From: an uncultured Pseudomonadota bacterium
GTDB lineage: Bacteria > Myxococcota_A > Polyangia > Fen-1088
Reading direction: 5' to 3'
DNA length: 64,000 nucleotides
Assembly: GCA_963847705.1 (NCBI GenBank)
Contig: CAWKBC010000021.1
Span: 160,001 to 224,000 of the forward strand
Under the pieces are notes generated by a model that saw nothing but the letters and a program-made list of their open reading frames with translations, had not been told where the DNA came from and made no database searches. The position numbers and the translations under genes were made by a program. Below, one piece after another: positions 45,836 to 50,992 of this stretch. Each line of letters starts with the position of its first letter. Position 1 is the first letter of the stretch.

Positions 45836-46834
45836 TCAGGCGTAGCGCTTGGCGGCCCGCCGCAGCTCCCCCGCCACCGCCTCCCGCAGCTCCGCCGGCT
45901 CCACCACCCGCGCGTCCCCTCCGAACCCCAGCACCCACCCCACCACCTCCGTCGTCCCCCGCACCTCCATCGTCATCTCCAGCCCCGCCGCCGTCCGCTT
46001 GAACCGTTGCGTGGGGTGCCACAGGACCCGCTCCACGTAGCGCGCCACCTTCGGGTCGAACAGGATCCGCACGCGCGTCACCTCCGACCCGCGGATCAAC
46101 CCGAAGGCCCCCTCGGTCAGCTGCTCGGGGCGGTAGTCGGCCGGGTAGTCGAACGCGTCGCCCCGCAGCCACTCGACCTCCCGGAACGCATCCAGCGCAA
46201 ACGTCCGGAGCGCGCCCGCGTGCCCCTCGCTCCGCCCCACCAGATACAACCCCTTCTTGTAGACCATCAGGGTGTACGGCTCGAGGACGAAGGTCTTCCT
46301 GCCGCCCGAGACGCTCTCGTGGGTGACCCGCAGGCGCTCCTCGCGCAAGAGCGCGGTGACGATGTCGTTCACGTCCTCGATCCGCCCCTCGTAGAGGTGG
46401 CGGGCCTCGTTCACGTCGAAGACCTTGCGATCGAGGTTGCGGGCGGCGGCGAAGTCCTTGCGGCGGAGCTGCGCCTCCAGCTTGCCGAAGAGATCGTCCA
46501 GGTCCTCCTTGAACCCGGTGCCGGCCAGGAAGTCGAACACGCGGCGGGAGAGAAACAGCGCCACCATCTGGGCGGTCGTCAGGGTCACCGTCTGCTGGCG
46601 GGCGCTGGCCATCAGGCGCCAGACCTTGCGCCGCCCCTCGACCTCCTCGTAGAGCGGCTCGCCCGCCATCTGCAGCGCGCGGATGTAGCGGATCGCCGTG
46701 CGGACGCTGACGGCGAACCGCTCGGCGATGTCGTAGACGCTGGCCCCCTCGCCGCTGTTGAGCAGGCCGCGCACCTCGGCGAGGCGGCGGGCGGGGGCGT
46801 AGCGCTCGGCGCGGGGCGGTCGGCGGGCGGGCAT
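45836..46834 (-). CDS. WYL-domain transcriptional regulator (wHTH-WYL-WCX; PafB/DriD-like)
   Basis: IAERFAVSVRTAIRYI HTH; LEPYTL...LYLVG...RTFALD; WVLGFG...VVEPAELR. Confidence 0.92.
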   Translation of the reverse strand: MPARRPPRAERYAPARRLAEVRGLLNSGEGASVYDIAERFAVSVRTAIRYIRALQMAGEPLYEEVEGRRKVWRLMASARQQTVTLTTAQMVALFLSRRVFDFLAGTGFKEDLDDLFGKLEAQLRRKDFAAARNLDRKVFDVNEARHLYEGRIEDVNDIVTALLREERLRVTHESVSGGRKTFVLEPYTLMVYKKGLYLVGRSEGHAGALRTFALDAFREVEWLRGDAFDYPADYRPEQLTEGAFGLIRGSEVTRVRILFDPKVARYVERVLWHPTQRFKRTAAGLEMTMEVRGTTEVVGWVLGFGGDARVVEPAELREAVAGELRRAAKRYA

Positions 46835-46839
46835 CTGGG

Positions 46840-46856
46840 CTGACCCAGTCTGTCAT
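46840..46856. promoter_or_regulatory. putative WYL regulator box (autoregulatory)
   Basis: CTGAC-CCAGTCT-GTCAT 5 bp from the WYL start; 13/17 identical to the recA box. Confidence 0.65.
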
Positions 46857-46928
46857 GGGACCGGAAGAAACGGCGGCGCGGGCCGACGCCCTCCTGGTCA
46901 GCTCGGGCCGCCCGGCCGCTGCGTGCCG

Positions 46929-49614: not shown

Positions 49615-49790
49615 GTCGTTGTTGGGGGATCTTTGTTAGCAGCTTCGTGCGTGTGGGTTCAAGAAATAATGTCCGGGGGCGGTCGTTTTTGTGTTGCAAG
49701 TCGGCACGTTGACTCACGTCGTCCGACATCCATCCGGACATCGTCGATCCGGCGGACTGGGCGGAGCCGCGCCGAGAGCTCGCCTCCGGT

Positions 49791-49823
49791 CTGACCCGTT
49801 TTGTCAGAGGTGAGAGTTACGGT
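49791..49823 (+). promoter_or_regulatory. WYL box plus RecA-NDp/PafBC-type promoter of recA
   Basis: CTGAC-N7-GTCAG palindrome; TGTCAG-N10-TA-N3-T (TTGTCAGAG-GTGAGAGT-TACGGT). Confidence 0.72.
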
Positions 49824-49849
49824 GGGCTCATCGAAAAGGAGCGCCACCC

Positions 49850-50992
49850 ATGACCACCCAGCAGACGTCCACCCAGCAGACCTCCACCCAGACCCCGCCC
49901 GAGAAGACGAAGCAGGCCCCCGGCGAGACCGAGCGCGCGCGCGCCCTCACCGCCACCCTGGCCGACATCGAGAAGCAGTTCGGCAAGGGGACGTTGATGC
50001 GACTCGGGACCGGGGAGGCGACGGTGGAGGTGCCGGTCATCTCCACGGGGTCGATCGGGCTCGACATCGCGCTGGGGACGGGCGGGCTGCCGCGCGGCCG
50101 CATCGTCGAGGTCTACGGGCCCGAGTCGTCGGGGAAGACCACGCTGGCCCTGCACGTGGTGGCGGAGGCGCAGCGCCTCGGCGGCACCTGCGCCTTCATC
50201 GACGCGGAGCACGCGCTCGACATCGGGTACGCGCGGAAGCTGGGGGTGAAGGCCGACGACCTTCTGGTGTCGCAGCCGGACTGTGGCGAGCAGGCCCTGG
50301 ACATCACCGAGATGCTCATCAAGTCGGAGGCGGTCGACGTGGTGGTGATCGACTCGGTGGCGGCGCTGGTGCCCAAGGCTGAGCTGGAGGGGGAGATGGG
50401 GGACTCGCACATGGGGCTGCAGGCGCGGCTCATGAGCCAGGCGCTGCGCAAGCTGACCGCCGCCATCGCCCGCAGCCACACGCTGGTCATCTTCATCAAC
50501 CAGCTGCGCATGAAGATCGGCGTGATGTTCGGCAACCCGGAGACGACCACCGGGGGCAACGCGCTGAAGTTCTACGCCTCGGTGCGGCTCGACATCCGGC
50601 GGATCGGGGCGCTCAAGGACGGCGATCTGGTGGTGGGCAACCGGACGCGGGTGAAGGTGGTGAAGAACAAGATGGCGGCGCCGTTCCGCGAGACGGAGTT
50701 CGACGTCGGCTACGGCCAGGGGATCTCGCGGGCGGGCGAGATCATCGACCTCGGCGTGGAGGCGGGCCTGCTGGAGAAGAGCGGCGCCTGGATCGCCCAC
50801 CGCGGCGAGCGCCTCGGCAACGGGCGGGAGGCGGCCAAGGCATACCTCCTCGAGCACCAGGAGCTGCTGCGCCAGCTGCGGACCAAGCTGCTGGAGAAGA
50901 GCGGGATCGGCGGGAGCAAAGTTGCGGCGCAAGAGACCGACAAGGCCGAGGCGGCGGAGGCGCGGCCCGCCGCCGCGAAGAAGGCCGCGTGA
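49850..50992 (+). CDS. recA: recombinase RecA
   Basis: [54 protein letters not shown]. Confidence 0.98.

Follow-up and report, generated by a model that had tools for sequence, protein, structure and literature searches.

The window analysed here, a 64,000-nucleotide (nt) stretch of contig CAWKBC010000021.1 (positions 160,001 to 224,000) from an uncultured bacterium placed by GTDB in Myxococcota_A, carries a gene for a WYL-family regulator and a gene for an accessory RecA, each with a TGAC-N7-GTCA box upstream. The locus and its relatives point to a real, well-conserved cassette that would work like the WYL activators DriD of Caulobacter and DdaA of Acinetobacter and would not be a member of the PafBC type. 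Its features are as follows.

45836 to 46834, minus strand: DriD-like winged helix-turn-helix (wHTH)-WYL-WCX regulator of 332 amino acids (aa), assigned by Pfam (HTH_11, WYL, and WCX), fold, and profile
46841 to 46855: WYL-side copy of the box, TGAC-N7-GTCA, 6 nt off the WYL start codon, without a -10 element at 11-nt distance
46929 to 49286, minus strand: PKD-domain protein of 785 aa (Pfam PKD_4), with a Ser/Thr/Gly-rich N terminus
49792 to 49806, plus strand: recA-side WYL box, TGAC-N7-GTCA (clade consensus GACC-N2-TTYTGTCA), predicted to span -38 to -24
49808 to 49811, plus strand: conserved AGGT right behind the box, predicted to lie at -22 to -19
49818 to 49823, plus strand: -10 element TACGGT, 11 nt past the box
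49836 to 49841, plus strand: Shine-Dalgarno sequence AAGGAG of recA
49850 to 50992, plus strand: accessory RecA of 380 aa (Pfam RecA, 2e-136, 454 bits)
50989 to 51176, plus strand: orphan 61-aa gene whose GTG start overlaps the recA stop, with the core YA-x6-LP-x2-FA-x5-W

The two boxes lie where a preceding sequence-only reading of this DNA had seen them, at the WYL start and upstream of recA. That reading had also described the recA promoter as TGTCAG-N10-TA-N3-T with no canonical -35 element, and this was borne out: the motif starts at 49802, and a sigma-70 scan found no -35/-10 pair between 45700 and 51400. Judged from this geometry, the recA-side box is predicted to cover the -35 position, and transcription of recA is predicted to start at about 49830. 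The bare palindrome is common in the 6.1-Mb genome assembly, which is 84.7% complete (176 strand-hits for TGAC-N7-GTCA); the composite of the box and N11-TA-N3-T occurs there once. A position weight matrix (PWM) of 37 columns, made from 32 sites of other genomes, gave the recA promoter 36.2 bits and the runner-up site in the genome 10.6 bits, and the maximum reached with column-shuffled matrices (n = 10) was 19.6 bits. A genome-wide WYL regulon was ruled out for the assembled genome, in which the PWM finds a single promoter. The WYL-side box scored 22.5 bits, making it the second-best box-only site of the genome, and it is likely to be a leftover duplicate or an autoregulatory site.

The motif scan that the sequence-only reading had named as a check gave, besides the single composite in this genome, a box kept before every facing target in the relatives. 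A scan of GTDB genomes yielded 38 related loci, some of which share a genome, and tblastn identified a facing target in 32 of them (recA in 27 and a gene for a Hel308-like helicase in 5). TG[TA]CA-N11-[TC]A-N3-T precedes all 32 targets, 27 of them with a stricter pattern and 5 with a one-base deviation. Columns that were free of the search pattern are conserved also: the upstream arm has G in 30, A in 28, C in 29, and C in 32 of the 32 sites, the box centre has a T in all 32, and the four positions of AGGT are kept in 28, 28, 29, and 29 sites. Information is high in the box, AGGT, and the -10 element and low in the spacer, and the downstream arm with its flank (TTYTGTCA-N-AGGT) is more conserved than the upstream arm. 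AGGT is possibly a contact of the wing or of RNA polymerase. A pattern-first search of the genus gave 27 matches in 19 of 26 genomes (control, 5 matches), of which 20 precede recA (2 at contig ends), 5 the helicase gene, and 2 other genes. In metagenomes, 35 matches were obtained (28 recA genes, 1 recA start at a contig end, 3 helicase genes, and 3 others), and there was no match to the pattern in 400 genomes from other families of the phylum.

The synteny of WYL and recA had also been named as a check. Of the 18 genus relatives, 15 have both a WYL protein of at least 55% identity and a member of the accessory RecA clade; in the remaining three, G002 and G005 (each 91% complete) and G017 (79% complete), neither was detected. 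The window and the 38 related loci have one WYL gene each. The promoter is located at most 180 nt from the WYL start region in 23 of the 38 loci, and the usual layout is therefore a divergent pair around one box; an insert is present in 12 loci, 2 have no promoter in the available DNA, and 1 begins inside the WYL gene. In all 13 separated loci (the 12 and the window), recA retains the full promoter, and the WYL gene has a second box in only 4 of them. The box that the sequence-only reading had described as shared is thus a single one that some lineages, that of the window included, have duplicated: sharing describes the usual divergent arrangement, and the WYL-side copy is optional. That reading was silent on the 61-aa gene and on the nature of the 785-aa PKD gene, which is inserted cargo dividing the normally divergent pair and lies outside the system. 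Elsewhere, a gene related to it stands between WYL and recA only at locus L071, and the remaining loci hold other inserts or none. The genes flanking the cassette vary widely among the relatives. Distant WYL relatives (at most 37% identity) occur in 54 of 300 genomes of the phylum, and no recA was found within the 1.5-kb flanks of 38 distant WYL loci.

The regulator is a single-gene, DriD-like protein facing a two-armed box and not a PafBC heterodimer. Its AlphaFold model (predicted local distance difference test score [pLDDT], 82) matched DriD best in Foldseek (8tp8; E value, 1.3e-19), followed by PafBC (2.7e-15) and then by BrxR and CapW. The profile search gave the same order as the fold (DriD, 5e-32 over the full length; PafB, 6e-17). 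R45 and R49 of the recognition helix correspond to the base-reading R37 and R41 of DriD and are kept in 35 of 35 clade proteins. The position of DriD E40 is occupied by I or L in the clade, which fits the outer T of the clade box because E40 reads the outer C in DriD.

Published systems are compared here as described in the accessible parts of the cited papers. In Caulobacter, DriD binds the driD and recA promoters (PMC9186387). At DriD promoters, for which structures are known, the site occupies the -35 position, a constant number of nucleotides from the -10 element and with no -35 element present, and DriD activates the gene divergent from driD, not driD itself (PMC13004042). The latter is the layout of 23 of the 38 loci, and we count it in favor of DriD-type activation. 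The printed sequences of two DriD promoters read GTCG-11 nt-CAATCT and GGCG-11 nt-CAAGGT, the -10 assignment being ours (PMC13004042). DriD binds a TGAC-N7-GTCA site with a dissociation constant of 6.9 nM and tolerates T/A box ends, and the box lies ~17 nt from the start of the regulator's own gene in 68 of 69 DriD homologues (PMC10853764). The cassette thus resembles the DriD system in having one wHTH-WYL-WCX gene, GAC-N7-GTC with a T-rich centre, an R-T-x-x-R recognition helix, a box over the predicted -35 position 11 nt before the -10 element, a divergent gene as the putative activated target, and a box at both regulator and recA. However, the proteins are only ~22% identical, and the cassette box ends with T/A, whereas that of DriD ends with C/G. 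DriD has several targets, and its recA is a single, LexA-repressed gene with the site 17 nt upstream of the -35 element, whereas the cassette has one promoter for a dedicated extra recA without a LexA-box candidate; six residues that contact single-stranded DNA (ssDNA) differ as well.

DdaA of Acinetobacter and Moraxellaceae (PMC12392091, PMC13010146) is likewise a homodimeric WYL activator of recA, with the box CGWCA-N5-TGWCG and a link to defence genes, and the first of its beta-strand arginines is already alanine. However, the DdaA regulon comprises >15 genes and DdaA replaces LexA, whereas lexA is present here and the genome has one promoter; in addition, the clade replaces the second arginine and the equivalent of Y173, which DdaA needs for damage sensing. 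Given that DriD and DdaA are already known at recA promoters, the suggestion that this kind of control was new outside Actinobacteria did not hold, and the basic mechanism has already been described for these two proteins.

PafBC of mycobacteria, whose promoter reads tGTCgg-N10-tA-N3-T (PMC8635444), shares with the cassette TGTC at -28 to -25, the spacing to TA-N3-T, the lack of a -35 element, a recA target, and two GTC-reading arginines in the helix-turn-helix (HTH) (PMC8635444, PMC11804915). However, PafBC is a heterodimer that uses one half-site and sigma adaptation at ~150 genes, whereas the cassette has one gene and a two-armed box, and the arginine pair that is essential in PafB (R211/R214) is absent from the clade. 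SiwR of Mycobacterium smegmatis is a homodimeric WYL activator of one adjacent operon that acts via a palindrome between -35 and -10, but its targets are of the DinB family, and the R204/R207 pair that it needs for ssDNA binding is absent from the clade (PMC10693628). Myxococcus xanthus also has several RecA paralogues, one of them reported to be without a LexA box (recA1/recA2; PMC7029660, PMC12288472), but it has two recA copies rather than three clades, and the accessible parts of these reports describe no WYL-linked recA. Its WYL pair MXAN_1359/1360 is reported there as LexA dependent and is not studied further in those parts (PMC7029660, PMC12288472). We found no description of a WYL/recA cassette in the literature that we reached, which leaves out most subscription papers.

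Some observations concern the WYL genes of other loci. A -10 element, TATCCT or TATGGT, is located only 6 to 9 nt before the WYL start codon at L078, L084, L086, L087, L090, L092, L103, and L104, which suggests that the WYL transcript is leaderless there; the WYL subgroup of the window is without this close -10 element. The distant myxococcotal WYL proteins of L144 to L172 (30% to 37% identity) often have boxes of the form GGACA-N5-TGTCC/TGACC, and many of their genes face predicted membrane peptides of ~85 aa with an LPW motif, which are possible division inhibitors. At L056/L207 (G019:C4), in another family, a WYL gene whose product is 37% identical shows the geometry of the recA promoter again, with GAC-N7-GTC and, 11 nt after TGTCT, TAGGTT; it faces a short gene of no known function and an MgsA-C-like gene, so labelled from reading of the sequence.

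Besides the window's recA, the genome holds another full-length recA (C10:48751), a recA fragment, lexA, and two more WYL genes, each single and on other contigs. The suspicion that the window carries a second recA copy was therefore correct, and no recX or cinA is adjacent to it. RecA proteins of the genus (30 relatives) fall into three groups, namely, that of the window, one linked to a 2'-5' RNA ligase-like gene, and one linked to comM. The group behind the ligase-like gene is the housekeeping one by context and was not found in this assembly. In a quick tree of 73 RecA rows, the group of the window forms a clade of 28 rows (Shimodaira-Hasegawa-like approximate likelihood ratio, 100; 99 in a second tree) nested in the class-wide housekeeping lineage. 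Two apparently unboxed rows in this clade are artefacts (the window of L017 clipped the site, and L022 is at a contig end). Duplication from the housekeeping recA of the genus itself was neither shown nor rejected (approximately unbiased test, P = 0.52; quick tree of 35 rows chosen from the 73). By sequence, the Walker A and B motifs, the catalytic Glu, the L1 and L2 loops, and the LexA-coprotease lysines of the accessory RecA are intact, and none of its six fixed differences from the two other clades in a consensus comparison falls in these motifs. As a separate observation, the comM-linked clade (C10:48751, which is L002, and L181 to L192) lies directly behind a gene read as comM/YifB-like across the genus, possibly in a natural-transformation operon. 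A truncated and frameshifted recA fragment (L003/L004; G000:C21:255509-255920) is close in sequence to the comM-linked copy, and downstream of it are an apparent structural-RNA 3' end, for which ARAGORN gave no gene, and integrase scraps.

Twenty-four of the 26 genus genomes have lexA. In its promoters (L208 to L231), a canonical TTGACA is accompanied by a tandem pair of conserved AC-N4-GTTC[AC]G sites located between and downstream of the -35 and -10 elements. These sites, a candidate LexA box of the genus, resemble the LexA box of M. xanthus. With a LexA-box PWM of 17 sites (self-scores, 18.5 to 26.2 bits), no LexA box was found at 68 boxed promoter instances (at most 9.5 bits). Over the 560 nt upstream of the window's recA, the top score was 12.3 bits, at a site ~470 nt away; the genome has 91 matches above 12. 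These low scores support, on an inferred box, the LexA independence predicted for the accessory recA promoter. Further candidate sites were found elsewhere in the genome by the same scan.

The same WYL clade and promoter also face a gene for a protein of 890 to 906 aa with DEAD, Helicase_C, and Helicase_dom4_arc domains (Hel308-like). Its C-terminal part resembles an OmpR-type winged helix (ESM Atlas, 0.91), which we take as a lead. Four such regions, which look like integrative elements, were examined (L206/L238 in G001:C2, L233 in G012:C424, L235 in G018:C594, and L237 in G018:C600). In three of them, a Toprim(-DUF927) primase lies on the side of the helicase, and one has an integrase. Behind the WYL gene are BREX genes (PglZ and BrxC/D), Hachiman HamA with a helicase and AbiJ, a Pycsar-like TIR effector, or an HTH/IrrE pair. 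Intermediates exist, with a recA-helicase facing WYL at L075 and recA plus the helicase C-terminal domain alone at L095 and L105 to L107; no helicase remnant was found in the window or its genome. At L244, L248, and L256, the box and helicase occur without an intact adjacent WYL gene (WYL remnants are present at L256), and at L265 the promoter precedes an AAA ATPase-like gene, also without an intact adjacent WYL gene. These four loci are candidates for activation in trans. The WYL tree mixes recA- and helicase-facing types and gives no direction of change, and the RecA and WYL trees of the recA cassette have similar subgroups. Helicase-facing copies were also seen in records titled Gemmatales (L077) and Fimbriimonadaceae (L093), which may reflect transfer or mis-binning. 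The proposed association of the cassette with a defence island was not supported: relatives do not keep the window's defence genes next to the recA cassette, although the helicase-facing copies are on defence-carrying elements.

We propose that a WYL homodimer would bind both arms of the box, covering the -35 position, and would bring housekeeping RNA polymerase to the -10 element eleven bases downstream, so that the accessory recA and the small orphan gene would be switched on independently of LexA. The trigger, bound in a remodelled WYL pocket, would be some nucleic acid, probably ssDNA that stems from damaged or incoming DNA. The payoff would be a burst of RecA without the need of already active RecA, which could also prime the LexA-controlled SOS response. 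That the WYL protein activates the accessory recA promoter, as such, we regard as very likely; that it does so by DriD-type activation with an ssDNA-type trigger seems probable, at a clearly lower level of confidence. The single-gene WYL activator and LexA-independent recA of the sequence-only reading agree with the linkage, the conserved box, and the lack of a LexA-box candidate.

Several points weigh against DriD-type activation by ssDNA. We infer that the protein binds and activates, where transcription starts, that the small gene is co-transcribed, and what the ligand is. The sites go back to a single locus within one genus and so do not count as independent, and the completeness of the assembly leaves room for further targets outside it. 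The promoter PWM does set the accessory recA apart from 52 other recA genes, for which its maximum was -4.3 bits, but the latter are mostly operon internal, so that the comparison misses their own promoters. The LexA box behind the LexA PWM was inferred from conservation upstream of lexA.

The main result against a simple ssDNA reading is the remodelling of the pocket. Residues that contact ssDNA in DriD are replaced throughout the clade (Y168 by H/Q, R178 by F, R207 by A, R210 by A/G, Y240 by I, and R288 by T/V); the beta-strand arginines R207 and R210 correspond to A213 and A216 of the window protein. The resulting motif, R-x-F-A-L-D-[A/G]-F-[R/K], from which both arginines are gone, is present in 119 of the 120 best database homologues, and both are replaced in 35 of 35 locus proteins. 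FALD[A/G] aligns with FRLSR/FRLDR of Arthrobacter PafBC, the M. smegmatis numbering having been mapped by motif. In DriD, Y168A and R176A-R178A abolish activation, and R207A and Y240A impair it (PMC9186387); the double Arg-to-Ala change abolishes ssDNA binding and activation in PafBC (PMC11804915) and in SiwR (PMC10693628). Sensing of ssDNA as in DriD, which the sequence-only reading had in mind, accordingly stands on less firm ground than had been assumed. DriD-type activation might instead respond to something other than free ssDNA, such as RNA, an ss/ds junction, or a nucleotide signal, or be independent of a ligand and set by protein level. We consider this unlikely, though worth taking seriously: among 38 more distant WYL proteins, all retain the second arginine and 37 retain Y168, and the replacements in the clade are fixed (H/Q, F, and A/G), suggesting selection for a new pocket and not decay. 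However, other pocket equivalents are kept (S172, R176 as K, R189 as K, Y192, R204, and W206 as F), and basic pocket residues K180, K193, K194, R210, and R248 (numbered as in the window protein) are present in 35 of 35 proteins, with Y197 kept and R218 near-invariant. Of these, K193, K194, R218, and R248 flank the pocket and may compensate for the lost arginines. DdaA, which lacks the first arginine only, still responds to damage (PMC12392091, PMC13010146), and both RecA and the Hel308-like helicase work on ssDNA. A related speculation, which we hold to be somewhat less likely again, is that the clade, now devoid of the arginine pair through which all tested WYL activators handle ssDNA, has changed its ligand and responds to another signal. 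The single switch would then serve two ends: for the host, a spare, LexA-independent RecA together with a small modulator protein, and, in trans, the awakening of integrative elements that carry defence genes and have copied the promoter before a Hel308-like helicase.

The cassette could also derive from an induction module of mobile elements that evolved on integrative elements and served their own cycle by activating a helicase gene and, in some cases, recA, the chromosomal cassette being a remnant that serves elements or little else. The primase, integrase, and defence genes around the helicase copies, the recA-helicase at L075 and the C-terminal-domain remnants, the box-helicase copies without an intact WYL neighbour, and the variable flanks would agree with such a history. 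We nevertheless judge it improbable, given that the recA cassette is kept in 15 of 18 genus relatives with intact genes and that its RecA and WYL trees have similar subgroups; moreover, the 61-aa gene was not found in the helicase-facing loci examined, no integrase-like gene was seen in the window, a tRNA/tmRNA scan found none in the window or at L003, and the WYL tree is silent on direction. The position of the box over the -35 region would equally suit a repressor of the BrxR/CapW type that is released by a signal, some copies adjoin defence genes as WYL repressors do, and at L078, L092, and L104 one box arm reads as a -35 element 17 to 18 nt from the -10 element of the WYL gene itself. However, such repressors bind inverted repeats over an otherwise full sigma-70 promoter ahead of a defence operon, and here the target promoter has no -35 element to unmask and the target is recA. 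The fixed 11-nt distance matches activators, and in both the fold and the profile comparison BrxR and CapW come far behind DriD and PafBC, all of which makes a repressor very improbable. PafBC-type sigma adaptation, in which one wHTH would read only the -26 half-site and the other would grip sigma domain 4, has even less to recommend it. The downstream arm and flank are indeed better conserved and occupy, at -28 to -24, the position of the PafBC -26 element, but the upstream arm, which PafBC promoters are without, is conserved too, no partner WYL gene is adjacent, the two others of the genome are single and on other contigs, and DriD is the closer relative.

Relatives of the 61-aa gene were found in 37 of 73 loci (L071 to L143), many of the others ending too early. 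They lie directly after recA or after an intervening domain and show in-frame length changes around an invariant core. The gene is single copy in the genome, and its product has 59 short stand-alone relatives among 1.84 billion representatives; no Pfam match, no usable ESM Atlas match, and no fold match were obtained (model pLDDT of 64, low confidence). By analogy with DidA of the DriD system and AciT of the DdaA system, our guess is that the protein might modulate RecA or delay division.

Of the neighbouring sequence, a small defence-like cluster at 36.1 to 43.3 kb is separated from the WYL gene by 2.5 kb and three genes. The cluster (36126 to 43342) is of lower G+C content and contains HTH and Gp49/HTH toxin-antitoxin-like, RF-1-domain, HNH nuclease, MazG-like, and PLD-helicase-DUF3427 genes. 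Tandem Ser/Thr/Gly/Ala-rich repeats are located at 48780 to 49140, in the N-terminal part of the PKD-domain gene.

New are the WYL/recA cassette with its one promoter, the occurrence of this switch in front of helicases on integrative elements that carry defence genes, and the loss of both arginines across the clade; the orphan third gene also sets the cassette off from the known systems. Its range, a single genus of uncultured soil myxobacteria (Polyangia), limits the reach of the finding. Within that range, it extends WYL-activated, LexA-independent recA control to Myxococcota, in which a LexA-independent damage response is known and for which the accessible part of a recent account mentions no WYL activator that has been studied (PMC12288472). 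The minimal form, with one regulator, one promoter, and one dedicated extra recA, offers a compact test system, and with the arginine pair lost naturally, one can ask directly whether sensing of ssDNA is obligatory for WYL activators. The presence of this promoter on integrative elements with defence genes points to a way in which the elements could be tuned to a stress switch of their host.

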